NCBI GenBank assembly: GCA_964016885.1
Contig: CAXHJY010000523.1
Location: 191,424-255,423, forward strand
Source: Eledone cirrhosa
Taxonomy: Eukaryota
Reading direction: 5' to 3'
Length of the DNA stretch: 64,000 nt
The position numbers and the translations under genes are program-made. The notes beneath the pieces were generated by a model. That model was not told the DNA's origin. It made no database searches and worked only from the letters and a program-made list of their open reading frames with translations. Positions 31,562 through 61,559 of the stretch are shown piece by piece. Numbering within the stretch: position 1 is the first letter of the stretch; each line of letters begins with the position of its first letter.

Positions 31562-32345
31562 ATGGTCACACAATGCAGATCCTGGGTACACAAGAGATGT
31601 AGCAAGATAACAGGCAAACTAACAGGTAGGCAGAAATACGTTTGCAGTAGATGTACAGGGAAATTAGACAGTAGAAGTCGCATTGATAGACACATTTTTC
31701 AAATGCAGGCGGGTGCTATAGAAGTGGTGGATAGCTTCCGGTACCTAGGAGATCAGATTAGCATGGGAGGGGGGTGTTCCGAGGCCATAGTATCCAGAAT
31801 AAGGACGGGTTGGAAGAAGTTTAGGAAGCTGCTTCCTCTGCTGACGAAGAAGGGTTTCTCCCTGTGTACGAAAGGCCGGTTATATGATGCCTGTGTGAGG
31901 AACGCGATGCTGCATGGTAGTGAGACATGGGCAGCAACTGCAGAGGATATGCGACAGCTGGAGAGAAATGAGGCAAGCATGCTTCGTTGGATGTGCAATG
32001 TCAATGTATGTGAACAACCCAACATAAATGTGTTGAGAGAGAAACTGTGTCTGAGAGGGATAGAATGTAGTGTGCGAGAGAGGAGACTGCGATGGTATGG
32101 ACATGTGATGCGCATGGCGGATGACTGATGGGTGAAGAAGTGCCAGGAAATGCCAGTTGAAGGAAGACGTGGGAGAGGTTGACCACAAAAAACATGGGCG
32201 GAGGTAGTGAGAACAGACCTCAGATCGCTGAAGCTCACGGTGGAGATGACGAAGGACCGTGACGAGTGGAGAGATGCTGAATAAGACCCGTCCCACCCTT
32301 GCAAGCAGGGAAAAGCGGACATAAAATGATGATGATGACGATGAT
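31562..32345 (+). mobile_element. 5'-truncated RTE/BovB-type LINE (ORF2 C-terminal region, premature stops, (GAT)n tail)
   Basis: IEVVDSFRYLG, RIRTGWKKF, KGRLY..CVR.AMLHGSETW, RRLRWYGHVMRM and G-R-R-G-R-G-*-P-Q-K-T-W motifs; stops near 32128 and 32180. Confidence 0.92.
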
Positions 32346-32737
32346 AATCATTTTAAAATAAAGTATTTTGTATCATAGAACCAGGGGCAGTTTGATATCA
32401 AATGAGTTAATATTATATCTCTAAGATTTATAGGTAATTATGGAAATCTGTTTTTTTATAGGGTAAAAGGGTAATCCCCCCACCCTCTTCAGTCACAATT
32501 CCCCATGGGTGTTTTATATACCTTCGCAACTTATTTCTGCAGCTAAGTGAACTAGAACAACATGAAATGAAATGTCTTGCTGTAAAACACTGCATTGCCT
32601 GGTCTGGAAATTGAACTCACAATAGTGAACTCAATGCTTTACAGTACTTATAATTAGGTGGTGAATATAATTAGTCACTGAAGCATAGAGAAAAATGGTT
32701 TATAGCATTTATTCTGCCTTCTTTTCTCTGTGTTTAA

Positions 32738-34374: not shown

Positions 34375-35174
34375 TAATACAGTTTGAATAAAAGACAGGG
34401 TGGTCATTATTGGATTGCCTGTTATATGTCTGCTTGATCGTTACTGACCTAAAGTTAAATAATTACAACATTTGAGTGGTTCTACTTTGTCCTAGCATCC
34501 TTTCAACTAACTCAGTCCAGTTAGTCAAACATAGCCAGCCAGCCAGCCAACTAACCAACCATCCCACTATCCAACTACCCCACCAACCAGACCAACCAAT
34601 CAACCAACCATCCAACCAGTCAACTAACCAACCAACCAACCAGCCAACACACCAGGCAACCAGCCAGCCATCTACCCAACCTTCCTTAACTTCAATCCAC
34701 TAACAACTAGTCCCCCACCAAATAATTGTTTCTACTTTAGGCACAAGGCCAGCAATTACCCAGTGCATAAAGTACCAGTAATGCACTGGGTAATTGCTGG
34801 CCTTGTGCCTAAAGTAGAAACAATTATTTGGTGGGGGACTAGTTGTTAGTGGATTGAAGTTAAGGAAGGTTGGGTAGATGGCTGGCTGGTTGCCTGGTGT
34901 GTTGGCTGGTTGGTTGGTTGGTTAGTTGACTGGTTGGATGGTTGGTTGATTGGTTGGTCTGGTTGGTGGGGTAGTTGGATAGTGGGATGGTTGGTTAGTT
35001 GGCTGGCTGGCTGGCTATGTTTGACTAACTGGACTGAGTTAGTTGAAAGGATGCTAGGACAAAGTAGAACCACTCAAATGTTGTAATTATTTAACCTTAG
35101 GTCAGTAACGATCAAGCAGACATATAACAGGCAATCCAATAATGACCACCCTGTCTTTTATTCAAACTGTATTA
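34375..35174. repeat. 800-bp near-perfect palindrome (394-bp arms, 12-nt spacer)
   Basis: Identical 75-aa ORFs on opposite strands (34476 +, 34846 -); one mismatch seen between the arms. Confidence 0.97.
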
Positions 35175-39461: not shown

Positions 39462-40935
39462 TGAAAGAGAGAACAACTTTTATTTCAGAGATCTTATATT
39501 AAAAACTATGCTTGATCTATTCTATTAAAGATTTTTTTCAGATAACTAATACATTAAAATAAGTACTAGGGTTTATATGAGAACCTTTGAAAATAGTCTC
39601 ATACACAGTCCAGTGATTGGAACCAATAAAGAATATAGTCATATTTTATAGTCATTCATCCTACCAAATATACTTTGCTAACAGTCACAAAGTGTAAGGG
39701 AGAGTTTTGTCAACTGAATTGACCCAGTTAATGACTGGTGCTTATTTTAGTGATCCCTTTCCCAAAAAGGGTGAAAAGAAAAATCAACCTGTGCAACATT
39801 TAAACTTAGAATATATAATAGAATCCTACATAGCATTAAAATAAGTAGATAGGTATACAGATAATATTCAAGTTTGCTGAACCTTCCTACTCATTTTATC
39901 ATTGAAAAGTTACATGTAAACCTGTTAAAAGAGATCCTTTGACTAGAGTGTTTAGTTCCAGTTCACTGATACAGTTAATATAAATAATAATAACAACAAT
40001 GATAAAGTACAAGCATAGAAAGGAAAGGAAGAAAATGATAAGAGAATACATGGGTAGTGTGTGAATGTGTATGTATGTATGTGTGTGTAGGGCAAGAATT
40101 TCCATACCAAGCAATCTGACAAATGGAGATAAATTAAGAGGAATTATGATGAAAGTAAAAAGGATTCAGAGTAAAAAAAGGGAGTTAGAATTACACAAAG
40201 ATTTGATGGGAATCATGTGGAAAACAGGGAGGGGGGATAGGGGAGGGGATAGAGAGGGGGGGGGGGGGGGGCAATGAACAAAAATTAGGAATGAGAAAAA
40301 AGGAAGAAACAAGAAGGGTGAAGTAGAGTCAATGTGTTTGTAAGATAAGAGAGAGAAAGAAAGAAAGAAGTTTTCAAGACAAATGCTTGGAGGAAAGAAA
40401 AATGAATACAAGCTAAAGAGAAGTAGAGAGTGAGAGAGAATGATCTAGAGAGAGCGGGAGAGAGAGAGAAGGGGGAGAGAGAGACAGAATGAAAGAGAGA
40501 GAGGGGTGAGAGAGACAGAATGAAAGAGAGAGAGAAAGAGATAGATAGACAGACTGAATGAGAGAGAGATAGACAGATAATGAATGAGAGAGAGAGACAG
40601 ACAAACAGAATGAATGAGAGAGAGAAAGATAGACAGAATGAAAGAGAGAGAGAAAGAATGAGCACTAGAGAGGGAGTGGGGGTTCAAATAACAAAGTGTG
40701 ATGAGAGAAGAGCTTTCAAGAGAAAGATCTGATTAAGAATAGTCTTTGATGAAAACGCCAAAAGTGCAGAAAGTTAAGAGTCTGCCAAATGTCTAGAAGA
40801 TTCCATTATCTGTAAGGAATTGGCTGTTGGTCTGATTGTTATCTTTTACAGAACCAGTTGTAGCATTTGAAGCCAGAATGACATGCAAATGTCATACACA
40901 CACATACACATAGACTGTAAATAATGATATCTATC

Positions 40936-41484: not shown

Positions 41485-41791
41485 TATAGAATGGAAAACG
41501 AAAAATCAGTGATGCATCGGAACTCAATTTATTGTGGGTTACAATTGTTTCCCCGGCGAACAGCTTGAGGTGCGATCTGTGTGTGGATCAACCTGACTCT
41601 AGACGCGCAGGTTCCTCGGACACATCTATTGATTTCGGAGCATATCCTCTTCCATGGAAGAGGATATGCATGTCTAGAGTCAGATCGATCCACACACAGA
41701 TCGCACCTCAAGCTGTTCGCCGGAGAAACAATTGTAACACACAATAAATTGAGTTCTGATGCATCATTGATTTTTCGTTTTCCCTTCTATA
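41485..41791. mobile_element. Fold-back element with ~120-bp arms, a 30-bp central palindrome and a hammerhead-like motif (Penelope pLTR-like)
   Basis: Arms 41485-41604 and 41672-41791; perfect palindrome GCATATCCTCTTCCATGGAAGAGGATATGC at 41640-41669; left end abuts (TA)n. Confidence 0.75.
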
Positions 41792-42102
41792 ATACTCTGC
41801 TCCGTAGGAGTATGGAGTGCTCAACCGGCATGTTGCCTATGGAAGCATCTTAGCTACCATTAGACATATATATATATATGTATATATATATATGTATAAT
41901 ATATAGTTATATAGTTGTGGATACAAACAAAAGAAAAGAGCAATCAACATATCATGTAGAATTTGAGTAATTATGTTAACAATTTTACTTATCTCTGCTT
42001 AACCATAAGTTTCCATAGGTTTCAGGATGCAAGCATGTTTTAATCTTGAAACCACTGTTAGTATGGAGTTGTTAAACTATATATATATATATATAGTATA
42101 AT

Positions 42103-42307
42103 CAAAGTTTCATACACTTAATATGTATGTGCTACCAATGGTTTTGGGGTCCAGTCATGGCTAGCACTGTATAATGGGGGAGGCACTTTTAAACTGACCC
42201 TTTATTCAGGCACATGGAAAGAAATATTTCTCCATTATACAGTGGTGGCCATGACTGGATCCCAAAAACCATACATAGCACATGCATGTTAAGTGTATGA
42301 AACTTTG
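42103..42307. repeat. Inverted repeat with ~75-bp arms (MITE/fold-back)
   Basis: CAAAGTTTCATACACTTAA...CACTGTATAATGG pairs with CCATTATACAGTG...TTAAGTGTATGAAACTTTG. Confidence 0.85.
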
Positions 42308-42415
42308 TTTACATTAAAATAAGCTCTCTTCCAACAGATCGGGCACTGTTTTCATTGATCTTTCATCTATGAATTTCTACCAATGTATATATATAAAATA
42401 TATATATATATATAT

Positions 42416-42524
42416 AATTGTCTCTACTTTAGGCACAAGGCCAGCAATTACCAGTGCATTACTGGTACTTTATTTTATCGACCCCGTAAGGATGAAAGGC
42501 AAAGTCAACCTCGGCGGGATTTGA
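42416..42524 (-). mobile_element. SINE family A, 5'-truncated
   Basis: Matches the 3' half of the consensus. Confidence 0.88.
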
Positions 42525-43071
42525 TATATAATTTGATATATAATATACATACACCATTAATCTGTTTCTTTCATATCTGGTGAAACTCGCTATTACCAGC
42601 TAAACATGCATATATGTAGGAGAAAGTCATGTAGATATGTACATATAATCATATAAACACACACTCATACATATTTATACTTTCATATAAATATAGATAC
42701 AAATATCATGTGTGAAGCTCAAATTTTCGAACTTAAGAAAGCACAGAGAAAATAAATTTATAAGATGCAGAAAATAGTTGCAATTACAGTCAGTTGCTAT
42801 ATAATAGCTAATAAAAGAGCAAAGACCCTTAGATGGAAAAAATGTCAGCAGCCTCTACAAAGAATTGAACTCAATATCTGGGAGACACAGACTTTGATTC
42901 TTCATAGCAGCCACTAGCAATATTTTTTCCATCCAAAAAGGGTCTTTACCTTATTTTTGTAACCTATTTTACTGACTGTAATTGCTGTTATTTTCTGTGA
43001 TTGAGCTTCCAACAACTTATATACTTCGCCCTTTCTCTGGAAATCTTTTACATGTAAGGTATATATTATTT

Positions 43072-43154
43072 GTATTTAATCGATTCTGAGGAAATTATTC
43101 TAAGATGGGATATTCTTGTTAGTCTAATGAAATGGTTGTAAATAAATTAAATGC
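43072..43154 (+). ncRNA. Type I hammerhead ribozyme motif
   Basis: GTATTTAAT-CG-ATT CTGAGGA A ATTA...TAAT GAAA T GGTT G TA AAT-AA-ATTAAATGC: intact core and extended stem I. Confidence 0.6.
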
Positions 43155-44210
43155 TTTAATTAAAATCCTTGTTAATATTTATTCTTTATATATAAATATA
43201 TGTGTGTGTGTGTATATATATATATATGGTGGCTGCCAACTCATTTTCGAGTACGGCTACTACTTTATATCCATGTAGGAGAACCCCTACTGATGCGCTG
43301 AACGAGTGTGACTTTTTAGTTCAGCCAGCGACTAGAAAACTCTGGTACAAACACTACACTTGTGACAATTACTGACACATAGTGCTGGGCCCATGGTACC
43401 ATGTGATGACAAGTGCAGAGAGATCTCCAGATATAAAGCAATACCTGTGCCGTGAAGCTTTTATAGTGAGCAAAGGCACTGCACAAAGCCAGTCCCACTC
43501 TCTTAACCAAGATGATATTTACCAAAAAGAAGAACAAGTCAACATCATTGGATACTATCAGGGTTGCAGGTGTTATATCAGAGTTTTCCTTCTATAATTC
43601 TGCCTTGACAAAGGCTAAGGGGTCATCTCTCCCGGTGATTTTGGATGGCCATTGACTCTTAAGAGCTCCTTTGTCTTTGACAGGTTTTGTTTTTAGTCCT
43701 GCAGGATGTCCAAAGTCACCCTCCTCACCAAGAAACCTTGGTGGGATTGCCAGTTTAGTCGCCAATGACCCGACTATGAGACAGGTTGTACTGGGATACA
43801 TGTTACCAGTAGCACCAACTGGTGACCTGACATACTATATATATATATTTACATGCATACATACATATATATATATGTGTGTGCATACAATCACTTGTAT
43901 GTTCATTTTTGAACCTAAACAAAATGGCGGTTCTAACGGTTTATAACTTGAACCTTTTTAATATCAAGATTCCACCTTAACTGTAGGTCTATTACTTTGG
44001 TGATGTGTTTTGATTTTTGAGTTAATATGTTATAAATCTTTCTTTCGGCTCTGTTGAGAATACTAAATCACACATTTTTTTCTCCTGTACTGATATCGAT
44101 TTTTAATCAGTATTCATATCATCTATGTGCATATCAAGGATTTAGTGTTTGAAACAAATTGAATTAAAAATATATGTATTCATAAATCACTGTTATTCTC
44201 TCCAGCATTC

Positions 44211-44384
44211 AGTATCAGTAGAGGGTCGGACGCCATGCTTTGACGCATAGAGTTACGGCCCTTGCCATTCTGAGTTCAAATCCCGCCGAGGTTAACTTTG
44301 CCTTTCATCCTTACGGGGTCGATAAAATAAAGTACCAGTAATGCACTGGGTAATTGCTGGCCTTGTGCCAAAAGTAGAAAAAAT

Positions 44385-44386
<2 letters not shown>
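44211..44386 (+). mobile_element. SINE family A
   Basis: Match to the family consensus. Confidence 0.9.
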
Positions 44387-44415
<29 letters not shown>

Positions 44416-44497
44416 TATGTATTTCTGTAGAAAAGGTAAAGGAAAGAAGAATGCTCTATGTATAGTACAGAGCTATTCAATTGTTTATTATGTAATT

Positions 44498-44533
<36 letters not shown>

Positions 44534-45083
44534 CATATCGTAGGTCCTCAACACTTGATATAATTATAAGTGCGCTATTGTGACGAACTGTGCACCTGTT
44601 TTTTCTATGTCACGGTTGCATGCCAGATCTTGTGTCACTACTTATAATTTGCCTGTCTATCTTTTACTTTGACTGCCTCTCTTTCTCTCCCCCTTCCCAA
44701 TTCCCTGTCAAATAGTCTTTGCAAGGTGACTGCATTGCTTAATCTGACTATACTATATCACGTTTCTTTTCGTAACTATAATGAGGTCTTGAAGAAGGTC
44801 AGTGTGGTGTTGAATTTTTTTGAAGACCTGTTTGTTTGTGAATATATGAGATACATAAGATATGGTAGCATCACATTCTTAGTGCCTTATCTTTCTCTGT
44901 AGTGAGGTTCCATTTTCTCTCAATTTTCAATTAATTTTGAGAATCATAAAAAAATTGTAAAAATTTAATAAAATAATTAGCCTTTTCTCTGTTAAGATGA
45001 CGTTTGGAACATTACTTAACAGCAATTTCTTTTTTTTTTTAAATGTTGATGGAAGATTTTAATATCAATTTGAATATGTTTAA

Positions 45084-45301
45084 CCCTTTAGCATTTACAT
45101 TACTCTATATTTACTATTGTATTTTCATGATAAACACTTTATCTCACATAATTATCTCACATAATATCGAATCTACAGGATTTTGATATCTATTTTTAGA
45201 TGAATACCTTAAAATAAGTATGAGCAGTCAGTTATGGCCAGTTTGAACAGAAAGAGGTGAGAGAATTCTGGCCAGATATGGCCAGTTTAAATGCTAAAGA
45301 G
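45084..45301. mobile_element. TTAA-flanked MITE, family 1
   Basis: Homologous to 32738-32958, with TTAA on both sides; nested in a family-2 remnant ending ~45363. Confidence 0.85.
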
Positions 45302-45913
45302 TTAAATGGAGAGTTTTGTACCATAAAAGCAGGATGGTTTTAGGGAGTTTTGTATCAAAAGGGTTAACCATTTTAATTATCATAATTTGAATGAAATGCA
45401 CTTCCTATGTGTTTTAAATAATTTTGAAATAATCAAGAATTTGGAGGGAAATATCTAACTTTGAGATTTGGAACATAACAAAAGTTCTTACATAGAAATT
45501 ATGATGAAACGTTTTTTGCTAAATATAAACAATTTGAAATAAAAAATGTTGTATTATAGAATCATGAACGACCTCAGGCAGGTTAATAAACATCAACTGC
45601 TACATACACTATGACAGAATAAAAATAGAAAGGAAACAAAAAACAGTAAATTTTATCTGAAAAACTGATAAGCTGGCAGAAGTGTATTAACTGAAATATT
45701 TACATTACAGCGTTACCTGGTTTTGAAATAATCTTTTAACCAGTTATATTATGTGTAAGATAGACAAATGTTTAGTAGGCCACAATTTCTGCACATATAA
45801 TATATATATCATGGTGATATACACAGACACACCCATATACATATACATATACATATATATATATATAAACAAGCAGTCAACAGTTTAAAATTAACTTTGT
45901 TTATTCATATTTG

Positions 45914-45970
45914 CTGTTATATATATTTCGGTGAAAGCCATTATACAACAGCTATGCCCTCATCAGACAG
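45914..45970 (-). ncRNA. Minimal type I hammerhead ribozyme motif, canonical core
   Basis: Minus strand: CTGT CTGATGA GG GCAT AGCTGTT GTAT AATGGCT TTCA CC GAAA T ATAT A TA ACAG. Confidence 0.75.
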
Positions 45971-46875
45971 GTAGAATCTGAACAGAAAAGACAGAAAAAA
46001 ATTAACGATGGCATACAGCTTACTTCTGTTATTTCGATTTTTTTATATGCTCCGTGCTGAATTTTGGTGTTGTTTTCTCAAGGTACCGGTATATACATAT
46101 ATATATATTATGAGATACAAATACATCTAGAAAATAAGTTTGGTTATTTGGAAGCCGGACAATGCATGTGAGATATAAGTGCCAAGGTAATAAGAATTTG
46201 AGAAAATAGATAAAGAAAAGAAAAAACAAAAGAACTGAGATAAAACAGTGAGAACGATAGAAAGATACCATAGCAATTTTAATGATCCCAAATATTTTTG
46301 GATTTACCATCCATTATCAAGGGAAGTGCGTGGGGTCAGGGGAGGCTCAGAGAGAAACCTGAGAAATGTCGCGGGTGGCTGTTCAATTTAATTTTTTAAA
46401 AATATATATATATATATATCCATATGTGGTTCTTGTCTGATGACCCTGAGATAAGCAGGAGGAATATGTTCTAAATACAAAATAATACTGGTGTTAAAGA
46501 GAGAAACACTTTTTATGAATGAAATTTATAACCGGAAACAAATTTTCTAGATCTCTCAACTGGAAACGAATTTTCTAGATCTCTCAGTTCTCATAGTGTA
46601 AGCTTAAGTTGTTCTTTGAACAAAACTATCTCGGTCACATACATGTCCTTAGCCATCCAACAAGCTTGGTGGGGAGGTAAGCTCCTGAAACTGAGAAGGA
46701 GAATTTGGGGAAATGGCTAACCACTAAGATATTGAAACAATTGTAATATGCAAATTAAGTTTGTATATATGTTGCAACACTGACTTTGACTCTTTTAAAA
46801 CTCTGTCTATATATATATATATAAAGGAAATGAATACAAAGAGTTTAAAACCGTTAAAACATGTTTATATAATTG

Positions 46876-46918
46876 TGCACCTACGTACGTTTCGCCCTGA
46901 GCAGACTTATCAAGGGCA
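46876..46918 (-). ncRNA. Minimal type I hammerhead ribozyme motif, U3-A8 variant
   Basis: Minus strand: TGCCC TTGATAA GTC TGCTCAG GGC GAAA C GTAC G TA GG(T)GCA. Confidence 0.7.
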
Positions 46919-46958
46919 TGGAAAGCAAAATAATGTTCAATATAGGACATTATTTTGC

Positions 46959-46999
<41 letters not shown>

Positions 47000-47233
47000 A
47001 TTAGGTATCAAGAGAGAGAAGAGAATGGAAAGATGGTCGATACATTTATTTAGTTGCCAATAGTTTATGCATGTGTGCTCAATACTCGTGCCTACAGGGT
47101 TAAATATTAGAGGCGTCAATATTTAGTGGGCGAGAAAAAATAAGCAGAGCGATTATAAAGGAAATGAATACAAAGAGTTTAAAACTGTTAAAACATGTAT
47201 TTATAATCATATATGTGTGTGTGCATGTGTGTA

Positions 47234-47670
47234 TATCATTATCATTTAACATTCATTCTCCCTTCTAGCAAGAGTTGGATGGGTCTTCACAGACTGAGTA
47301 AGTACTCAAGCAGGGCTACTGACCTCTCAGATAGGTCAGGGTGCTGCATCGCCCATACATATGATCCTGCACTCAACAAAGTGCATTTTATCCTGATACC
47401 AACACTAAAGAAGCTATCATGTTTCTGACACAACTGAAGGGTCCTCCTGGCCATTTGTTTGGCAAGCTTTCTATGGCTGGATGCCCTTCCTATCACCAAC
47501 CATTTTACAGTGTGGACTGAGTGCATTTATTGTGTAGATGACCAATATATAAGATGATGTTCTGCAGCTGACACAATTAAAGGTCTTCTTGACCTTTTTT
47601 GGCATAGTTTCTAGAGTTGTATGCCCTTCCTATCACTAACCATTTTACAGGGTGTAATGGGTGCACCAGA
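47234..47670 (-). mobile_element. Decayed RTE/SINE-B 3' tail fragments
   Basis: ATCATTTAAC start and two GGATGCCCTTCCTATCAC-type motifs. Similar remnants at ~38642-38920 and ~60889-61135. Confidence 0.65.
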
Positions 47671-50230
47671 GAGGCTGTTAGTCATTGTTTCAACTGACGA
47701 GCCCTCTCTGCCCTACTGGAGATGGGACGAAAGAAAGGTAGATAAGTGTGATCTTATGAGTGTATGACAAATATGGTTGTATTTGACAGGGTAGGAAGAA
47801 GGAGCAACCTCAGATAGCGTAGGTGTATCAGGACTGTAAGGGTGGGGAAATGTAGTAATGGCAAGAATAGCTAAGGAGGGATATTGAAAGGAGCATGGAT
47901 GGGGTGGGGAGAGATTTTGGTTGCTTCTATCTCTAAAAATAAAAATAAAAAATTATTGAGTGATTTCTAATAAAAACAAAACACACTATTACAGGGAACA
48001 AAGGAGGAGATGAAAATAAGAAAAAGAAAACAAAAGGATAAAACAATGAAAGAAAGAGAGGGGGAGGAGCAGACACTACACCCCAGTCTAAGCAGTGCCA
48101 TAGCCACACCCTGCAGAGAAAATGGCAAATGCGTTATGTCAGAGAATGGCCAGAGACACCTGCTGCAACAGTCACCCCACTTCACAGGGCTCCCTTTTCA
48201 AGTGAGCTGCTATCTTTCCAACTTTACGGAAGAAATCATCAGTGCGGGGGACCAAGGATGCCAAAGATCTTGACAGCAGACAAATTATTTTTGGTTTTAT
48301 AGTTCTGAGATTAAATTCTGCTGAGGTTAGCTTTGTCTTTTATCCTCCTAAGACTGATAAATAAAGTACCAATGTAGGGAGGTGCAGTGATGGAATCGGT
48401 TTTTGTTCATTAGCTATCGTCTGCTTTCAAAATATCACAGCTTGTCTAACTAGTATTCCTATGATCAAAGGCATTCAAGCTGGTACCATCTTACATATTT
48501 TCATTCATATGGTTGTGTATGTAAATATACTTTAGTTGTAGAAGTGACATCCTCCACTACCAACTAATTTGCCATCCGCCTCTGGGTCTCAGCCGACAGA
48601 ATGGAGAATGAATTGCCCTAGAGGACAGTGAGGGAGACACACTGAAACAGCCACTCCACGAGTTCCAATAACACCCTTGTCCATTTTGGGTGATGGATTT
48701 AATCTATTACCCAGTTTTACCACCTGGCCCTTGGATGTATTTAGCAGACTTTCAACAACATGGATTCTAATCAAGTAAATTTACAAGCCAACATAAATCA
48801 ATCATATTTTCTTCATTTTGCAACTTTTTTTCCTGGATTTGCCAATACCAATAAGTGGTTGCATGGCCTACTAAAAATAGCAGCCACATTTCCTTCCAAT
48901 TGCATCATACTATCTTGAAAAATGAAGGGCACACTGGACAGTGTAATACTTGAATGTATTCCATTTAATTGGTTATAAATCTGCTTGAAGAAAACTGTAA
49001 GGAACTAAAAACAATAGCAACACCTACCACAACTTTCACCGTACCACTAGTAGAACAACTATCACTACTACTACCTCTCCACCACCAGCGTCACCATCAC
49101 CACCAACACTGCTACCACCACCAGCTTTACTGCCCTCATCACCACTACCAACATTACCAACCACAGCATCACTACCACCATTACCAACACCAACATCACA
49201 CTACCACCACCACCATCACCAGCATTATTAGTATTTTCAAGAGCAACTGTTAAAGCCATCACTTGTTGTACCCACCTGACAGGAAACTTACCATTGAATC
49301 TGCTGTCCATCAAACTACCACCCTACCATGTATTTCCCTCTCTTACTTCTTCCTCCAACTCCACTTGAAATCTTCAGAAGAAAACCAAAGAGGGAGTGAA
49401 GGAAGGAAGCTGTAGTGAAATACTTACTTACACTCTGCTGACAAGAGGAGTGTCACTCTAGAAAGTGAGCAAGTTGCTTATTTCCCCTCTCTACTATATA
49501 TTTTAAGGACCTGCTGTTTGTCTTCTCAGGTTTCAATTCATTCAAGGTGTCTAGTTTAAACACTCCCTCACCACCACCATCATTCCTACCATCCAACCAG
49601 GTCTTCCTGACTCTTTCTCTCCCTGCTCACTCTCATCTAAATTGACCTACCACCCATCTCCCTTTAAACACTCACAGCAAAGCCCTTCACAGAGCCAGCT
49701 CCCTTCAAGATAACTGGTGTCAATGACCCCACTAATTACTTTATGACAGAACAAGCATTCCTGTCAAGCTCCACATTCCCAAGATGCAGATACCAAGAAA
49801 ATGGAGGAATTATTTTAGGCCATGGCTATAGCCAAATAATATTATGTGTCTGTCTGTATATTATACTAGCAGTGGTACCCGGCGTTGCATGGAATAAGGT
49901 ATTTTGGAACGTGGGCCGCCAACTCTCTCTCTCTATCTATATATAGATAGAGAGACGGTGAATTGGCAGAGTCGTTAAGACATTGGATAGAATACTTTAT
50001 GGTATTCATCCCACCTCATTGCACGCTGAGAGTTCTTTGCCTTTCATCCTTTCGAGGTCGATAAAAAAATACTAATCCAGTACTGGAGTTGATTCTTCCT
50101 CTATAGAAAAAATCAGCTGTGTTCAGATCTGGAGAAAGAGTCGGATTCCTCCAGGTTCAAAAGGGCCCTAGACATGCCATATGATGGGGTCCTACGATTC
50201 CACAAGGAGTTATGGGATCTTTATTATATA

Positions 50231-50870
50231 CTAGCAGTGGTACCCAGCATTGCACAGGATAAGGTATTTTGGAATGTGGGCCGCCAACAGACCTAATTGT
50301 CGAAAAGCTGCATGCCTGGATAATATGTAAAGAAAATAAACCAAATACTCTGATGGCTGGATAATCTTTAAGATTTTCCTCGATGAAGCAGGAAAAATGC
50401 AGGTTTTCACCTAATGCGGGCCCTAGGGATCAAGAAAAGGAATTTTTTTTATGTGCATAATATGCCTTGAAATTTCAGGAAAATCGGCTAAACCTAACGC
50501 CTCAAAAAAGCCCTAAAAAGCTGAAAAAATGAAGTTTTTCACCTAATGTGGGCCCTAGGCCATAAAAAAGTTGGATTTTCTTTGCTAACAGTATGAAGAA
50601 GAGACTGACTAATACATAGTTACAATTTCAAGGAAATCAGTCTGACGTAACACCTAAAAAAAACAACTAAAAAGCTGAAAAAACGCGCAGTTTTTCTCCT
50701 AATGAGGGCCCTAGGGGATCAAAAAGTTGAATTTCTTTATGTGCATAACACTCCCTCAAACATAAGTAATACACATGTAAAGTTTGAAAAAAATCAGTTG
50801 GGTACTTCTCGAGTTTTAGGGATTCAAACACAGAGAGAGAGAGAGACAGACATCCTCAGTTTTATATAGA
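50231..50870 (-). mobile_element. Non-autonomous Helitron
   Basis: On the minus strand: 5' TC(TATATAAAACTGAGGATGTCTGTC) and 3' subterminal hairpin followed by CTAG; internal GGGCCCTAGG-containing subrepeats. Confidence 0.75.
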
Positions 50871-51454
50871 CATATTTTTTTTTTTCCTTAAAAAATGTAG
50901 AAATCTTTAATGCTGAAAATATATCTAGTTAGATTTTTTGTAGCGGCTGCTGGCCATTTTTTTTTACATTTATAGAAGTATTTTACCCAATTTTCTACAG
51001 TTATTTTCAGTATTTGAAATGTCTATCTACTCAGGAATGGTGGAACGGAATGGAGGGGGGAGGGGGGGACTGTCCCCAACTCCAAAAAAATCTACCAAAA
51101 CACACATCTATTTGTTTGTATATGCACTACAATCTATGTACATGTTATGTTTATCACATATCAAAGATTTTTTTTATATCTTGGTTGATAATTGATATCA
51201 ACTAAACTAATCACTACAACTAAATTGACCAAATTTGCCCCCCCCCCCCATTCAGAAACGCTTCCACCGCCCCTGTATATATATATATAAACAAGTGTTA
51301 GGTAGGTAGATAGGTAAGATACACATAGAGAGGTGAATATATCTAGATATATAGAGAGACATTGAGATTCATGTTTTGGTATTGTTGGCAAAACTGTTAA
51401 CCCTGTTTTTGTATTATGACCAGTAACTGTTCATTTGTTGTTGTTATTACCATA

Positions 51455-51642
51455 GGGCGGTGGATTGGTAGTATCGGTAGAGGGTTGGATGACATGCTTT
51501 GCAGCATGGAGTTACAGCCTTTTACGGTCTGAGTTCAAATCCAGCCAAGGTTAACTTTGCCTTTCATCCTTACAGGGTCAATAAAATAAAGTACCAGTAA
51601 TGCACTAGGATAATTGGTGGTTTTGTGCCAAAAGTAGAAACA
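51455..51642 (+). mobile_element. SINE family A with TSD GTTATTACCAT
   Basis: TSD at 51443-51453 and 51643-51653. Confidence 0.92.
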
Positions 51643-51832
51643 GTTATTACCATGGTTGTTTTTGTTGTTGATATTGTGTTAATGCAGTGGTTCCCAAAGT
51701 GGGTTCCACAAAGGAGTGAAAAAAGGTATAGGAGTATATTTATATTATGACTATATAATAGTATTAGACTTTGGGGTTCCCTCAAAAGTTCTAAACAAAA
51801 AGAGTTCTGTGTTTGAAAACGTTTCAACTTAA

Positions 51833-52042
51833 CCCTTTAGTATTCACATTACTCTATATATACTATTATATTTTCATGGTAAACGCTTTACCTCGCATAA
51901 TTATCTCACATAATATCGAATCTATGAGATTTTGAAAGTATTTATTTTGAGAACGATACCTTAATATCAGTATGAGTGGCCAGTTTCAACAGAAAGTGAT
52001 AGAGAATTCTGGCCGGTTTTGACCGGTTTGATCATTAAAGGG
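51833..52042. mobile_element. TTAA-flanked MITE, family 1
   Basis: Homologous to 32738-32958, with TTAA on both sides. Confidence 0.85.
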
Positions 52043-54548
52043 TTAATGAAAGTAAGTGAAAGGAGTGGACAGTCCAGATTACTTTAAAATGCAATATTTA
52101 AAGACCTGTGACTATTTTTATTGATTTCTCAAAAAAAAAAGAAGTGATTTTCGTAATTACCATGCAAAACTACATCAGTGTTGAAATTTACAATAAAAAG
52201 AAGCAATCAAATGCTGCATACCAAAAAGAAAATATCTCAGGAGGTTTTATAAGGCCATTAGTTGCATATTTCTCTGTAGTTGATCTCTGCTATTGACATC
52301 CACTGATGAGGTCACAATAATGCCTGGAAATTAGTTAAACATGTTTCAATCTATGGGTGAAATACATAAATTTAACTTGTTTACATACCTCAGTGTGTAT
52401 GTGCATGTGTGTTTGTGTGTGTGTGTGTGTGTTTGTGTGTGCATATTCATAGATAATCCTATACTGCATATGTTCATATCTATATTTATCATGTGTATAT
52501 TTGTGTGAGCGCATGTACATTCATAGATAATCGTTGTATATGTTCAGATATATATTTATGTGCATATTTGTGTGAGTGCATGTGTGTGTGTGTATTAAAT
52601 ATAAATATAATACACACTTAATCCATCAGTTGACATATTGCAAAAAAAAACCATTACCCATGATTTTCAAATATTTGAAGGAATTTAATAATATAATTAA
52701 TTTTCTCATTATTAAACTGTTGTTTCAAAGCTTCTTATTATGATGGAAGGGTTTTTTTTTTTTTATATAAATATAAACAGCTTTATATAAGAGATCTGAG
52801 GCAGTTGTATCTATTTGAAATACAAAGGGCCAAGTATTGTATGCAATCAATAGTTTGATTTCCGAAGATGGTTCCATCCACTTTAACCCTCATATGTAGA
52901 CCTTTTTAAGTGCATTTTTTCAAGTTTATAATACATATATTTTTACAACTCTTTATAAAATAAAAATAAAATTAGTTTTCCCTCTAACATAGCAGATATG
53001 TAAATGCATTGTGTGTTTTATATCGAATAATGATAATATTTGAATTAACAAGCCTGTTTTAAAATATATTCTGCTAAATCATTAGATGTTAAAAAGTAAA
53101 TTAAGATTTTAGGTGGGATAGTAGTGTGGGTGATGTGGTGGTGGAATGGGACTCCAGGCACCAGTATGATTTATGCCTCCTACCCACTTTTACTCTCATA
53201 GTCAATGGGTAAGATAATCCTGGCATCAGCTGTGCACTGTAAATTAGGGTGTTTCACTAACTTCTAATATTTTTTATTCCTTTCAACAGTGACATAATGT
53301 TGTTATGTTGTGTGTCACTTGGAATGATGTATTGGTTGTGGCTCTTGTTAATTTAACCCTTTTGATGCCAAACCACCTTAAACTGCCCTCCTCACCCCCA
53401 CCACTGTTCTATGATACTCAACTGTTTATTCAAGAATGTTTATTATTATCTAAAAAAAACTTCCATCATAATTTTATGTAAGAATTTTTGTTTAACTATA
53501 TCTAAACAACTTAATAATAAGAAATTTAGTTATATTATTAAATCCATTAAACTTCTTGATTATTTTCAAGATAATTTGAAAGCAACAGGCAATGACTTTC
53601 ATTAGAAGTATAATAACGAACGGGTTAACCTCCAAGCTAGCCCTGATTCAACTGACTGATGAAGAAAAGCATTCCAGCCATGACCATCCACTTTTATTCA
53701 GGCATAGTGTGTATCCCTGTTTTTAGAATAGATACACCATATCCTTGTATGCTGTAAGACATGACTATAATGGTTGACATCAGGAAAGGCATCCACAGCC
53801 TCAAAAATTCCCATCCAACTCATGTCAAAATTGTTTGTTTTAAAATATCTAAAACCCTTTAAAAACCTATCACAATTTTATGAAGGATCTTTGTTAAATT
53901 ATGTTCCAAACACCAACTCAGTAATAAGAGAATTAGTTATATAACTAAACCCCTTGAAATTCTTGATTATTTTCCAAATTATTTGAAAACCATCAGCAGT
54001 ATCTTTTATTAGAAATATGGCAATGAAAGGGTTAACCTATTTGGTACCAGCTTGCCTGAAACCACCCTATTTCTAAGATGAAAAACTGTTTGTTTTAAAG
54101 TGTTCATATTTAAATTTAAACCTTCCATTATGGTTTTATGTAAGAACCTTTGTTAAGTTATGGTCCAAACACCAAAATTAAAATATGAAAATCATAGGTA
54201 GCATCATTTATTAGAAATTGATAACAAAATGGTGAACTTGCTGTGGCAAAGAACTTATGTTGTTGTACCAAAGTTGTAACAAAACCTGAGAACGCTGAAG
54301 ATGTCTACATGTTTATTTACTGTTGTTATTATTATTATATGCCTGTTTATATTACTGTATATATTATATGACAGAACCTGAGATATTCAATTGCACTATA
54401 TATATATATATATATAGAAAGAGAGAGAGAGAAAGAGAGAGACAGTGAATTGGCAGAGTCATTAAGACATTGGATAGAATGGGCCCTAGACATGCCATAT
54501 GATGGGGTCCTACGATTCCACAAGGAGTTATGGGATCTTTATTATATA

Positions 54549-55469
54549 CTAGCAGTGGTACCCAGCATTGCACGGGATAAGGTATGCGGGCCACCAACAG
54601 ACCTAATTGACGAAAAGCTGCATACCTGGATAATATGTAAAGAAAATAAACCGAATACTCTGATGGCTGGATAATCTTTAAGATTTTCCTCGATGAAGCA
54701 GGAAAAATGCAGGTTTTCACCTAATGTGGGCCCTAGGGGATCAAGAAAATGAATTTTTTTTATGTGCATAATATGCCTTGAAATTTCAGGAAAATCGGCT
54801 AGATGTAACGCCTCAAAGAAGCCCTAAAAAGCTGAAAAAATGAAGTTTTTCACCTAATGCGGGCCCTAGGCCATAAAAAAGTTGGATTTTCTTTGCTCAC
54901 GGTATGAAGAAGAGACTGACTAATTACATAGTTACAATTTTAAGGAAATCAGTCTGAGGTAACGCCTCAAAAAACCTCTAAAAACCTAAAAAAAACGCAG
55001 TTTTTCACCTAATGCGGGCCCTAGGGGATCAAAAAGTTGAATTTCTTTATGTGTATAACACTCCCTGAAACATAAGTAATACACATGTAAAGTTTGAAAA
55101 AAGTCGGTTGGGTACTTCTCGAGTTTTAGGGATTCAAACTCACAGACACACACACACACATACAGACATCCTCAGGGAAGTGACGTAATGCAAACAGTCA
55201 GACATACAGCCAGATATTATAAGGGCGCAACGTTATATGTATCTATCTAAAAAGAGAAAGACTAAGAATTATAGAGAGAGATCACTAAATCGCCTAATGC
55301 GGTCCCTAGGGCATTGAAAATTTGAAATTTTGTTTGCTCAGAACACTCCCTGAAACATAAGTACTACATGTGTAAAGTTTGAAAACAGTCGGTTGGGTGC
55401 TTCTCGAGTTTTGGGGATTCAAACTCGCACACACACACACAGACAGACATCCTCAGTTTTATATATAGA
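54549..55469 (-). mobile_element. Non-autonomous Helitron, same family as 50231-50870, with a duplicated 5' segment
   Basis: High similarity to the 50.2-kb copy; CTAG and TC termini; the segment ending ACAGACATCCTCAG occurs twice (~55154 and ~55456). Confidence 0.75.
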
Positions 55470-55490
55470 TATATATATATATATCAGATA

Positions 55491-55640
55491 GGATGTGGTA
55501 AAAACCAAGTAGACCATAACAAACCAGAGTACTCAATACTTGGGCTAGTAGAGTGGGTAATATGAAAAGATTCAGAACCTCAACGGCTGAGCTAGATCCG
55601 AACTAGATCATAGTTCAGCCATCGGGATCCTGAATCTTTA
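55491..55640. mobile_element. Small (TA)n-embedded repeat with terminal hairpin; relatives at 63713-63845 and 63917-64000
   Basis: Shared body GACCATAAC...CAGAGTACTC.ATACT..GG.TAGTAGAGT; inverted repeat at 55566-55639. Confidence 0.7.
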
Positions 55641-55819
55641 TATATATATATATATTGTAATTTTTCGGTCGCATGGGTGATTTTAGACATAATCTTTGTG
55701 TGTTGGTATTTTAACGATAGTTATAGCTCTGATTTATCTGAATTATTGAGCCCTCTGCCACTCATGTCGAATTTGTTTATCGTAAACTCGTGAGCTGATT
55801 TTTCGATACTCGATTATTC

Positions 55820-55932
<113 letters not shown>

Positions 55933-56567
55933 ATGGCATGGAAAGAAGGTGAGATAGAGAAAGTGTGATGTAGACAGAGAAGATAGTGATGAAAAGAAGC
56001 AGAGAAAGTGGGTAGGCTGAGAAAAAAAGATAATATTAAACCTTACACCTTTCACAAACAAGGAATAAACAAGACAACAAAAAAACAGCAACAGTTAACA
56101 GCAACAAGTGATTCAGCTCAAATGAGGTGCTCAGCTCTCTGCTCTGTCAGCTTTCTTAATGTTTATTTAACAAGAAAGCATCATTATCATCATCATCGCT
56201 ATCATTGTCACCATCATAATGAGAGTTCTAACTATTTCAAACCATCTGAAACAACAACAACAAGGAAAAGAGAGAACTTTGCACAGATGGCATATTAGAT
56301 TCCATGAGTTATGGCACTTGTTAAATCATCAATATATATATAATATATATATGTGTGTGTAAGTACATATATATATTATATATATATATATAATATATAT
56401 ATGTATGTGTAAGTACATATATATATTATATATATATATATAATATATATATGTATGTGTAAGTACATATATATATTATATATATATATATATGTATGTG
56501 TAAGTACATATATATATTATATATATATATATGTGTGTGTATGTAAGTACATATATATATTATATAT

Positions 56568-56906
56568 GGAGGCATATGGCTTAGTGGTTAGAGCATTGAC
56601 CTTGCAATCGAAAGGTTGTGAGTTCAATTCTCAGACCGGGTGATGTGTTGTTTCCTTGAGCAAGACACTTTATTTCACATTGCTCCAGTTTACTCAGCTG
56701 TAGAAATGAGGTGATAGGGACTGGGGTCCATATCATTCCACTGCAAAAGTGATCGTGGAGGTGCCACGGCAAAAAAAGCACCCAGCACTCACTGTAAAAT
56801 GAGGTTGGTGTTAGGAAGGGCATCCAGCTGTAGAAACCAAGCCAGAATCAGTTCCCATCCCACCCTTGCAAGCAGGGAAAAGCGGACGTATGATGATGAT
56901 GATGAT
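56568..56906 (+). mobile_element. Full-length tRNA-derived SINE family B
   Basis: A box TGGCTTAGTGGTTAG, B box GAGTTCAATTC, body CCTTGAGCAAGACACTT, RTE-like (GAT)n tail; inserted in a TA-rich tandem array. Confidence 0.9.
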
Positions 56907-56928
56907 ATGTGTAAGTACATATATATAT

Positions 56929-56960
<32 letters not shown>

Positions 56961-56984
56961 ATATATATATGTATGTGTAAGTAC

Positions 56985-57020
<36 letters not shown>

Positions 57021-57853
57021 ACTTACACATACATATATACACTCCATACTCATAGAAACACACATATATGTATTTACATACATACACATTATATACAGGC
57101 ACACATATATATATTGTATACATATACAGACACATATATACATTATATCCACATACATATATACACTGCATACACATAGAGAGACATATTATATACACAT
57201 ACTGACACACGTATACATGTATCTACACATATTTACACACACATACATTATATAAACTTATACACACACATACATTATATATATATACATACACATACAT
57301 TATATACATACACAATACACATAAATATACTGTATACACATAATATACACATACCGACACATATACATGTGTTTATACATATTTACACACATATACATTA
57401 TAAACACATACAGACACACACATATATATATATAGACACATACAGACACACATATACATTGCACACACACACATATATATATATATAGACACATATACAC
57501 ATACACAGACACTTATAACATATGTTTACACATGCATACAGACATACATATATATTGCTTACACATACAAAAACAGATATACAATATACACACATATATA
57601 TATATATATGCTTACTTATACACAGACATACATCACTTACACATACACACAAACACACATTTACATTGTATACTAGCACCTCCAACACCACCACTTACAC
57701 ACTGACCCACATACATATGTTTACACAATATGCTGGCACATACATTCAGAAGCACACTCATACATTTGCACACACATGCAAATACACACACACACACACA
57801 CACATGCAAACATACATTCAGAAGCACACTCATACATTTGCACACACATGCAA

Positions 57854-57903
<50 letters not shown>

Positions 57904-58045
57904 ACACACACATGCAAACATACATTCAGAAGCACACTCATACATTTGCACACACATGCAAATACACACACACATACAAACATACATTCAGATGCACACA
58001 TACACACTCAGAAGCACACACATTCAAACACTGACACATATGAAT

Positions 58046-58114
<69 letters not shown>

Positions 58115-58200
58115 TACATTCAGAAGCACACACACACATTCAGAAGCACACACATTCAAACGCTGACACATGCAACTTACACACACATACATACAGAGTT
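56907..58200. repeat. Degenerate (TA)/(CA) microsatellite region with short CATTCAGAAGCACAC-containing tandem units
   Basis: Read directly. Confidence 0.9.
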
Positions 58201-58399
58201 ACTTATACAGTGAAGCTGTGTAAAGGTGTATATGTGGAAAGTGGTGGGGTGTATATAAGAGAAGAAGAAAGAGTTAGGAGTTAAGTGGAGTGTTACCAGT
58301 CACTGTAAAGGTACTGTATACCCAGGCTTGTATTTCTGAATAAACAGATTTCACAATATAATATAAACAATAGAAGAACTGAAGGGAAACAGTAACAGG

Positions 58400-60150
58400 G
58401 GTGGTGGTGGTAGAGGTTGTGGTGGTGGTGGTGGTGGTAGAGGTTGTGATGGTGGTGGTGGTGGTGGTGGTAGAGGTTGTGGTGGTGGTGGTGGTGGTAG
58501 AGGTTGTGATGGTGGTGGTGGTGGTGGTGGTAGAGGTTGTGATGGTGGTGGTGGTGGTACAGGTTGTGATGGTGGTGGTGGTAGTGGTAGAGGAGGTGGT
58601 GGCAATGGTGGTGACGGTGGTGGTGGTGATGATGGTATTAGTGATGGTGGCAGTGGTAGTGATTGCAATGGTGGTGGTAGAGGTGATGGTGGCAGTGGTA
58701 GTGGTAGAGGTGGCAGTGGTAGAGGTGGTGGTAGAGGTGGTAGTGGTAGAGGTGGCAGTGGTAGAGGTGGTGGTGGCAGTGGTAGAGGTGGTAGTGGTAG
58801 AGGTGGTGGTGGCAGTGGTAGTGGTAGAGATGATGGTGGCAGTGGTAGAGGTGATGATGGCAGTGGTGGTGGTAAAGGTGATGGTGGCAGTGATGGTGGT
58901 AGAGGTGATGATGGCAGTGGTGGTGGTAAAGGTGATGGTGGCAGTGGTGGTGGTAGAGGTGATGGTGGCAGTGGTGGTGGCAGTGGTGGTGGTAGAAGTG
59001 GTGGTGGAAGTGGTGGTGGTAGAGGTGATGGTGGCAGTGGTGGTGGTAGAGGTGATGGTAGCAGTGATGGTGGTAGAGGTGATGGTGGCAGTGGTGGTGG
59101 TGGTAGAGGTGATGGTGGCAGTGGTGGAGGTAGAGGTGATGGTGGAAGTGGTGGTGGTAGAGGTGATGGTGGCAGTGATGGTGGCAGTGGTGGTGGTAGA
59201 GGTGATGGTGGCAGTGGTAGTGGTAGAGGTGATGGTGGCAGTGATGGTGGTAGAGGTGATGGTGGCAGTGGTGGTGGTAGAAGTGGTGGTAGAGGTGATG
59301 GTGGTAAAGGTGATGGTGGCAGTGGTAGAGGTAGAGGTGATGGTGGCAGTGATGGTGGTAGAGGTGATGGTGGCAGTGGTGGTGGTAGAGGTGATGGTGG
59401 CAGTGATGGTGGCAGTGGTGGTGGTAGAGGTGATGGTGGCAGTGGTAGTGGTAGAGGTGATGGTGGCAGTGGTAGAGGTAGAGGTGATGGTGGCAGTGGT
59501 GGTGGTAGAAGTGGTGGTAGAGGTGATGGTGGTAAAGGTGATGGTGGCAGTGGTAGAGGTAGAGGTGATGGTGGCAGTGATGGTGGTAGAGGTGATGGTG
59601 GCAGTGGTGGTGGTAGAGGTGATGGTGGCAGTGGTAGAAGTAGAGGTGATGGTGGCAGTGATGGTGGAAGTGGTGATGGTGGCAGTGGTGGTGGTAGAGG
59701 TGATGGTGGAAGTGGTGGTAGTAGAGGTGATGGTGGCAGAGATAGTGGTAGAGGGGATGGTGGCAGTGGTGGTGGTAGAGGGATGGTGGCAGGGGTAGTG
59801 GTATGGTGGCAGTGGTAGTGGTGATGGTGGCAGTGGTAGTGGTAAAGGTGATGGTGGTAGAGGTGGTAGTGGTAGTGGTGATGGTGGCAGTGGTAGTGGT
59901 AGAGGTGATGGTGGCAGTGACAGTGGTAGAGGTGATGGTGGCAGTGGTGGTGGCAGTAGTAGTGATGGCAATGGTCGTGGTGGCAGTGATGGTAGCGGTG
60001 GCCATGGCAGTGATGATGATGTTGTTGGAAATAGTGGTGGTGGTGGTGGTGGTGATGATGGTGGCTGTGATGGAGATGGTCATAGTGGGGGGAGGAGGTA
60101 GTAGTGGGGTTGGAGGTGCTTGTAGAGATGGTGGTGGTGGTGGTAGCAGG
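58400..60150. repeat. (GTG)n-derived cryptic minisatellite (GTGGTAGAGGTGATGGTGGCA-type units)
   Basis: Read directly. Confidence 0.93.
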
Positions 60151-60519
60151 ATTAGCAAGGGTTATTGTTGGAGAGTGTGGTAATACTAACTGGGTGGGTA
60201 ATGTAATGATGGGAGAGAGAAAGAGACAGGGACTGTGTGTAAAATGATTTTGAAAGGTATGTGTGTGTTTTGTGGTGTACGTTCATGTGTAAGTGCTCAT
60301 GTGTGTGTGTGTGTGTAACATTTAAACAGATGCTAATGTATTTTTTTTTCTCGAAAGAAAACATTGATTCCACACACGCACACAACACACACATACATAC
60401 AGTTTAATAATGTAAAAAAATGATCCCCTCTGTTGGTGATTTTTTTTTTTCTTATCAATATCAACCAGTTTTCAAGGACCAGCAGCATATTTTTCATTTA
60501 ATTTCTGATGAGCTGATAA

Positions 60520-60734
60520 CCCTTTAGTATTTAAACCAGCCATATCCAGCCAGAATTCTCTTATTTCTTTCCGCTCAAACCAGCCATAATTTGCTACTCA
60601 TACTGATGTTAATGTATTGTTCTCAAAATAAATAATATCAAAATTTCATAGATTCGATATTATGTGAGACATTATGTGAGGTAAAGCCTTTACCTTGACA
60701 ATATAATAGTATATATAATGTAAATGATAAAGGG
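60520..60734. mobile_element. MITE family 1 in reverse orientation, flanked by ATAA
   Basis: Reverse complement of 32738-32958; ATAA at 60516-60519 and 60735-60738. Confidence 0.82.
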
Positions 60735-61179
60735 ATAAGCGATTCTTATATGTCAATATGAAGATATTTTCAGTTTAAAAACAAATGTACGTATATCTCG
60801 CAGTTGATTATATTTGTTATTAGTAAAATGTATATAAATTGATTAAATAAATGACTTAGTTAATTCCACCTATTCATTATTCTATATATCATCATTATTT
60901 AACGTCCATTTTTTCCATGCTAGCATGGGTCAGATGAGGTGTCCCATTGTGAGACAAGTCAGATCAGATGTCCATGTCTTGCTCATACAGAATTGTTTCT
61001 GGCTTATGTATATCATCATCCCCATTCAACGTCCATTTGTCCACACTAGCATGAGTTAAATGAGTTGTCCTGTTTGAGATCTGATGACAATGTCTTGCTT
61101 ATACAGGACTTATTTTTCTTAATGCCAACCACATTTACATACATACAAACATACATACGTATGTATGTAAAGAGGAATC

Positions 61180-61224
61180 AGCTTGATTATAGTTTCAGGT
61201 GTTATTAGGTTCTCATCAGCAACT
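61180..61224 (-). ncRNA. Degenerate hammerhead motif
   Basis: Minus strand: AGTTG CTGATGA GAACCTAATAACACCT GAAA C TATA A TC AAGCT; core intact, stems damaged. Confidence 0.45.
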
Positions 61225-61337
61225 ATTTACGTTGCTCTTAGCTCAACACCGTAAAATTGTATTAAAGACACTATTTGAAAAACAAAAGTTAATTTTCAGC
61301 TCCCATTCATGCAGGTTTAGCTGACCTCCTATGAGGT

Positions 61338-61559
61338 TGTATTTCATGAAAGGTTTCTTGGGTGTTTTAATGATAGGAGACCCATTATATATATATATAT
61401 ATACATGGTGGCTGCCAACTCGTTTTCGAGTACGGCCACTACTTTATATCCATGAAGTAGTGGCCATACTCGAAAACGAGTTGGCAGCCACCATGTATAT
61501 ATATATATATAATGGGTCTCCTATCATTAAAACACCCAAGAAACCTTTCATGAGATACA
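61338..61559. repeat. ~220-bp fold-back palindrome
   Basis: ~110-bp arms with few mismatches and a ~4-nt loop at ~61448-61451; the inner arm matches 43227-43275. Confidence 0.93.

Follow-up and report, generated by a model that had tools for sequence, protein, structure and literature searches.

Hammerhead motifs at (TA)n tracts in Eledone cirrhosa as probable truncated ends of coding, Hydra-type Penelope-like elements

Penelope-like elements (PLEs) of the Hydra clade are defined by a set of coding motifs, insertion at (TA)n and canonical hammerhead ribozymes, and the paper defining the clade lists one octopus family, Hydra-1_Obim of Octopus bimaculoides (Craig et al. 2021, PMC8557442). The minimal hammerheads of PLEs cut weakly and in dimer form only (PMC4209133). 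In the Poseidon element PAc of Anolis carolinensis, which has AT-rich targets, reverse transcription starts on uncut RNA at two internal sites that define a tail between them, and in vitro the hammerhead need not be active (Frangieh et al. 2024, PMC11167929). Type I hammerheads, often with a palindromic loop III, are also found in animal retrozymes without long terminal repeats (non-LTR retrozymes), which are non-coding tandem repeats of 150-450 bp giving rise to circles (Cervera and de la Pena 2020, PMC7229834). An annotation of Octopus vulgaris from 2026 reports 31 recently active Penelope-like families, with hammerheads not mentioned in the accessible part of its text (PMC13282606). Here, we analyze a 64,000-nt stretch of the Eledone cirrhosa genome (assembly GCA_964016885.1, contig CAXHJY010000523.1, positions 191,424 to 255,423, forward strand), hereafter the window, in which a sequence-only reading had described five hammerhead-bearing loci as non-autonomous mini-elements. 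That description fails for at least three of the five: loci A, C and D are very probably the 5'-truncated pseudo-LTRs (pLTRs) of coding PLEs with Hydra-type motifs, inserted at (TA)n, and loci B and F are likely of the same kind. They are new families of a known class, hammerhead-bearing and (TA)n-targeting Hydra elements having already been described (PMC4209133, PMC8557442).

The loci are named A (41535-41624, reverse strand), B (43072-43154, forward), C (45914-45970, reverse), D (46876-46918, reverse) and F (61180-61224, reverse). Below, ORF stands for open reading frame and UTR for untranslated region; L numbers denote copies elsewhere in the genome. The features of the window are:

41489-41651, reverse strand: family A 3' end (pLTR) of a probable 5'-truncated Hydra-clade PLE, ending at (TA)n; 94% identity to the 3' end of the ORF-bearing copy L160
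41535-41624, reverse strand: family A hammerhead; core CCGAGGA (U4C) at 41619-41613, long stem II region, stem III C-G, loop AATT, predicted cut after 41540
41672-41865, forward strand: inverted, more truncated family A end without the 5' half of the core, then a tail of ~75 nt (start of the 5' UTR), then (TA)n; 89% identity to the pLTR-tail junction of L160
43017-43186, forward strand: family B truncated 3' end with hammerhead; core CTGAGGA at 43086-43092, predicted cut after 43140; no ORF linked
45868-46075, reverse strand: family C truncated 3' end of a probable Hydra-clade element; core CTGATGA at 45966-45960, loop ATAT, predicted cut after 45918
45971-46023, reverse strand: family C stretch of 52-53 nt that resembles an intron and ends at stem I of the hammerhead; acceptor G lost in the window copy, splicing putative
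46728-46807, forward strand: sixth stump, 3' half of the hammerhead of another family; loop AATT, U4 core in relatives
46824-46948, reverse strand: family D truncated 3' end of a probable Hydra-clade element; core TTGATAA (U3-A8) at 46913-46907, loop GTAC, predicted cut after 46882; 95% identity to the end of the ORF-bearing copy L158
46995-47207, reverse strand: second piece of family D, the last ~54 nt of the pLTR plus a tail of ~160 nt (start of the 5' UTR), ending at (TA)n; 96% identity to the pLTR-5' UTR junction of L158
61165-61270, reverse strand: family F, old low-copy hammerhead relic; core CTGATGA at 61219-61213; no (TA)n end, no ORF linked

All five hammerhead-type motifs are present where the sequence-only reading had placed them, on the same strands, and BLAST among the loci returned no cross-matches, in line with its claim that they are mutually unrelated. 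The core it had proposed, C/UUGANRA, holds for B, C, D and F and not for A, which has C at core position 4. The stem III loop is indeed palindromic in four loci (AATT in A, ATAT in C, GTAC in D and TATA in F). A polyadenylation-like word is found in A, B and C (AATAAA) and in D (ATAAA), and (TA)4 follows the predicted cut at 51, 46, 50 and 58 nt in A, B, C and D, respectively. In the region 31101-64000 (GC 37%, 50 tracts of (TA)5 or longer), only 10.9% of positions have a (TA)4 start within 65 nt downstream. Locus F has neither AATAAA nor ATAAA and no (TA)4 near its predicted cut. At locus A, inverted arms span 41485-41609 and 41667-41791. The sixth stump (46728-46807), which is of PLE type and broken inside its hammerhead, lies tail-to-tail with D in one TA tract and was absent from the earlier list. 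That none of the loci is coding is correct within the window, where nothing of these elements' ORFs was seen beyond a 16-residue 5' UTR match, but longer genomic members of A, C and D are coding.

The loci are not single-copy either. Searches of the 3.0-Gb assembly gave 2,448 candidates for A, 299 for B, 1,411 for C, 731 for D and 5 for F, of which 40 from each search (5 from that for F) were scored and 30 loci retrieved; these first-look counts are not to be read as copy numbers, and the best matches are biased towards the window copy. Ten longer genomic regions were examined for coding sequence. Four long copies of family D can be aligned with one another over 1.4-3.4 kb (91-94% identity) and carry the motifs RVRWK, SDKT, YRDD, CxCx5C, YIGA, CxxC and CxH. 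The family A copy L160 comprises, in order, an inverted truncated copy, a pLTR with hammerhead, the tail, the ORF, a long low-complexity 3' UTR and a hammerhead-bearing 3' end, and its ORF contains RMRWR, SDKT, YRDD, CxCx5C and CxxC. Downstream of the reverse transcriptase (RT), D has YIGA with flanking cysteine motifs, the signature of a GIY-YIG endonuclease; A has a decayed equivalent and C, judged by motif, has remnants. Two family C copies, L277 and L272, carry CxCx5C, YIGA and CxH upstream of the 3' UTR, and L277 runs unbroken from the endonuclease remnants through the 3' UTR into the family C end and tail. The autonomous RT plus GIY-YIG partners with the same ends, for which the sequence-only reading had suggested a search, are thus present for A and D, and represented by endonuclease remnants for C. 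A C-terminal GIY-YIG, RWK, DKT, a CxCx5C linker, CxxC and CxH are likewise features of the Hydra clade (PMC8557442). Here, A, C and D share the linker motif, A and D have CxxC, and C and D have the terminal CxH, which the single A copy lacks.

A structural model of the D RT (50 sequences) reached a pLDDT of 87, and seven of its ten best-ranked Foldseek matches are telomerase RTs; an RT of this type was not seen for B, C or F. The RTs of A and D are 48% identical over 246 aa. In a tree made of the fetched loci and their homologues only, an RT homologue from Argonauta hians, one of 120 listed homologues, groups in the same clade as these RTs. Family C alone has intron-like words, a donor-like word in 18 of 30 copies and, 52-53 nt away, a TAG abutting stem I in 23 of 30; an intron ending at hammerhead helix I has the same layout in D. 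virilis Penelope (PMC4209133).

The insertions have a common anatomy. Copies of A and D, such as L160 and L158, show the order pLTR, tail, ORF, 3' UTR, hammerhead, (TA)n, and there are two fixed end points at (TA)n, namely the pLTR end or the end of a tail of ~75 nt in A, ~100 nt in C, ~163 nt in D and ~180 nt in B. Where a copy bears an ORF, its tail forms the first part of the 5' UTR, and each of the two end points coincides with a TAT or ATATAT word. (TA)3 is found at the end of 16/30 copies of A, 22/30 of B, 23/30 of C and 26/30 of D, and not in F; most family A ends without (TA)3 continue into the tail, which itself ends at (TA)n. Inverted copies of the 3' end are present upstream in 8/30 (A), 7/30 (B), 2/30 (C) and 9/30 (D) loci, and tails in 10/30, 4/30, 7/30 and 4/30, respectively; neither was seen for F. 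In 30 pattern-selected A copies, the 5' break lies between 6 and 857 nt from the core, and a group of breaks falls at 32-35 nt. Insertion at (TA)n, a hammerhead near the 3' end, inverted 5' copies and tails are shared with the Hydra clade (PMC8557442).

We propose that the endonuclease would nick (TA)n and that reverse transcription would be primed inside a pLTR-to-body transcript, through short homology of its TAT/ATATAT words to the target. Early termination would leave 5'-truncated stumps, and a second priming event would give the inverted 5' copy. The hammerhead, with its 1-bp stem III extension and self-complementary loop, would by analogy cut mainly as a dimer; it may trim tandem transcripts and would not be needed for each insertion. 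Since copies retain sequence on either side of the predicted cut, the templates would be uncut RNA, as in PAc, which also resembles these elements in its two RT start sites with a tail between them and in its AT-rich targets. PAc belongs to a different clade, and the tails here measure ~75-180 nt. Moreover, the start sites here fall on target-matching TAT/ATATAT words, in PAc on a non-homologous AC-rich stem-loop; the Poseidon priming site tested in vitro is not homologous to the cut DNA, which counters the microhomology step (PMC11167929).

Several further observations weigh against the assignment to coding Hydra-type elements. The top Foldseek match of the D RT is the bacterial DRT2 RT, no Pfam family was found in four ORF pieces, sequence searches of the PDB returned no match, and RVT_1 was detected in only one of six homologues, below cut-off. 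Every ORF copy examined carries stops or frameshifts. Owing to long linkers and 3' UTRs, A and D, with ~4.6 kb and ~3.5 kb, respectively, are longer than Hydra elements, which are 'generally <3 kb'; the published length is stated as a tendency, not a rule (PMC8557442). For B, upstream homology stops after ~630 nt in a low-complexity TA/TG tract with no ORF linked, and 11 of 11 tail-end pattern matches run into microsatellite instead of an element body. For F, neither a linked ORF nor a tail or (TA)n end was found.

Family B has a pLTR, tails and inverted copies as in A, C and D. Alternatively, B, and possibly F, could be true non-autonomous elements of ~0.6-0.8 kb, made up of pLTR, hammerhead and tail and copied in trans by a Hydra-clade enzyme. 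The longest B copies do begin in the TA/TG tract and share no sequence beyond it, and no collinear RT or endonuclease match was seen in B loci. Against this, in A and C, too, the 3' UTR contains a low-complexity tract, and the ORF lies on its far side, so that the B boundary may be a truncation point. Family C, too, seemed fixed at ~215 nt, and the idea of a 215-nt non-autonomous unit was dropped when searches with tail and upstream sequence extended it to the endonuclease remnants of L272 and L277 and into the ORF. Finally, B is old, near-full matches being 77-88% identical to the window copy, and long B copies should therefore be rare. Copying in trans is an explanation we hold open but consider rather unlikely; B and F probably belong with A, C and D as stumps of one kind. 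An ORF in L286 tried as a partner of B was dropped, as it has its own, different hammerhead end. On its reverse strand (2970-6290), L286 contains an almost complete Hydra-type element, AT-rich and with loop GCGC, that belongs to a further family, and a family B stump is nested in the terminal (TA)n of this element.

The sequence-only reading had also likened the loci to animal non-LTR retrozymes, short tandem monomers that are cut by hammerheads and spread via circular RNAs. Type I topology and palindromic loop III are common to both, three D pieces listed by the search lie on one strand ~146 nt apart (G000:C4:295079981-295080392), and one family C locus shows a 241-nt spacing. Yet a second same-strand hammerhead within ~1.5 kb was found in only 3 of 125 loci, one of them spaced <450 nt (A 0/30, B 0/30, C 3/30, D 0/30, F 0/5). 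Copies are variably 5'-truncated with inverted partners and are not unit-length monomers, and retrozymes lack coding capacity, whereas families A, C and D are coding. A retrozyme origin, largely refuted for A, C and D, is very improbable, and the loci are better described as dispersed truncated ends of coding elements.

That these are hammerheads is best seen in the family alignments, in which majorities restore pairings lost in the window copies and each family is dispersed. In C, the majority brings stem II back to 3 bp plus 5 bp and stem I to 5 bp; in B, G10.1-C11.1 is regained, together with a C-G stem III. Core position 7 of B is variable (G 12, T 11, A 5), the remaining core positions being conserved in 24-29 of 30 copies, and its loop, GGUC, is self-complementary via G-U pairs; a tight family B pattern gave one match. 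The cores of B, C and F are canonical, that of D is of the U3-A8 type, with both bases in 30/30 copies, and that of A is deviant with C4. Counting C4 as intact, the core letters are unbroken in 27/30 copies of A, 14/30 of B, 21/30 of C and 27/30 of D. For F, all five candidates match, the four non-self ones at 73-77%, and one further copy was found by pattern; stem III has a C-A mismatch in the window, where all five aligned relatives have G. The families thus show stems I-III and a self-complementary loop III, and by comparison with them the window copies are decayed. The sequence-only reading was right to see minimal type I hammerheads like those of Penelope pLTRs, spread over many families and associated with (TA)n.

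The window copies on their own might be taken for chance matches in AT-rich, repeat-dense DNA. They fold poorly, the hammerhead being the minimum-energy fold in none of the five (z -1.97 to +0.13), and an Rfam scan of the window with E up to 5 gave 117 matches, none to a hammerhead family. An initial, over-strict descriptor found nothing in the window, the tightest setting (stems I and II each ≥4 bp) found nothing in 31101-64000, and the strict descriptor recovers D alone among the five window copies. A loose descriptor (YUGANRA, GAAA-N-4-N'-UH, stem I ≥2 bp) finds four loci in 31101-64000, namely B, C, D and a match at 39475-39541, outside the earlier list, that looks like noise. Nevertheless, block-wise dinucleotide shuffles gave a mean of 0.45 loci, and none of 60 reached four. 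The strict descriptor gave 48 matches in 481,853 bases of sequence flanking PLE-related matches, with overlapping loci kept, against 0-1 in each of eight shuffles. The palindrome is part of this descriptor, and the loop palindrome in these matches is therefore not independent evidence. It is because of the family alignments, in which stems and core return, that we regard the chance reading as refuted and give it almost no credence.

As a control, 28 loci anchored on an unrelated repeat contained no strict hammerhead in 85,695 bases. It follows that 48 per 482 kb is not a genome-wide density, and that intact motifs cluster near other PLE insertions. Over 1,180,568 fetched bases, the strict descriptor found 166 distinct contexts in 18 single-linkage clusters. 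With at least 18 hammerhead clusters here and one octopus Hydra family listed in the defining paper (PMC8557442), this genome, as judged from its sequence, has many more Hydra-type families than that list. The hammerhead and N-terminus of Hydra-1_Obim, compared by eye, match none of our five families. In a practical sense, such stumps may be mistaken for mini-elements resembling short interspersed nuclear elements (SINEs), and they are missed by Rfam.

Several other repeats occur in the window. A query spanning 61165-61385, used as a probe for family F, recovered an unrelated 105-bp tandem family instead. Pieces of this 105-bp unit lie at 61290-61385 and 61516-61557 and in L121-L150; it forms hairpin-rich tandem arrays on several chromosomes, and no hammerhead core was seen in it. 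A short end that terminates in (TA)n and contains a nested hairpin, possibly another PLE tail, occurs as a fold-back pair at 61405-61493 and singly at 43226-43275. At 46430-46490 (forward strand), just after a TA tract, a CTGATGA core is followed by a short hairpin without an intact GAAA, possibly a decayed hammerhead. At 55490-55640 (forward strand) lies the degraded copy of a repeat that is very common, is flanked by (TA)n and was also seen in L192 and L227. Inverted duplications lie at 42074-42310 and 34375-35174; the 394-nt arms of the latter (34375-34768 and 34781-35174), listed as 100% complementary, have a piece of a common SINE-like repeat at their centre. Large satellite arrays occupy 1-15629 and 26972-31035, with periods of ~49-63 nt and 21/42 nt, and a remnant of the 3' end of an ORF like that of a long interspersed nuclear element, recognised by eye, ends in (GAT)n at 31540-32350 (forward strand).

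Published PLE hammerheads resemble those described here in their short palindromic helix III, the dimer model, a U3-A8 covariant core and an extra base after position 9; they too are mostly single copies from truncated PLEs, with an intron ending at helix I as in family C. In contrast, the accessible text on them mentions no U4C family and does not name octopods. A C4 or U3-A8 core is found in none of the 26 Hydra rows of File S2 (PMC8557442). U4C is in print as a rare, low-activity viroid variant, with much reduced activity in vitro (cited in Perreault et al. 2011, PMC3088659). We found no report of it in retrotransposons in the literature searched, which did not cover Lunse et al. 2017 or Repbase.

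In family A, all 30 best matches have C at core position 4. When either base was allowed at this position, the family A pattern gave 308 matches, the first 100 listed comprising 72 C4 and 28 U4 copies. Of 30 fetched pattern copies, eight are U4, and seven of these have linked changes in common, stem I being lengthened by several of them. We accordingly rejected CpG decay as the only source of U4 in family A, and the linked changes imply that both the C4 and the U4 state had source elements.

A second family, J, lies outside the window (loci L352-L388, e.g., L366:1493-1900), with L366 linking it to a Hydra-type RT. Stem II and the palindrome of loop III are retained in several of its subfamilies. 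Exact patterns matched 6,450 C4 and 129 U4 copies, reversed-pattern controls giving none. In an alignment of 21 distinct J rows, 97% of cells are paired and three pairs are changed on both sides, a result matched by none of 500 shuffles; one of the double changes turns the dimer palindrome from AATT into AGCT, and AGTT occurs as well. This covariation is suggestive only, because each double change is a single row, the pattern fixed most of stem II and 7 of 23 rows are U4. The RT pieces of A and J, at 42% identity, are the lowest pair, and the tree fork between them is open.

Judged from these sequences, the C4 core is thus the majority state of two high-copy retrotransposon families, where the viroid U4C is a rare variant. 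By analogy with the viroid, the C4 change is predicted to weaken cutting. It is conceivable, though we hold it only tentatively, that thousands of copies derive from C4 sources with stem II and palindrome kept by compensation, and that in two divergent Hydra lineages selection holds a throttled ribozyme, under which most template would stay uncut. Among the features of these elements, the C4 lineage alone is unusual, and it is the only part we judge worth an experiment. The coexistence of C4 and U4 subfamilies in family A makes a clean comparison of activities possible; if the tentative reading is true, these would be natural, matched U4/C4 subfamilies for asking what PLE hammerheads do.

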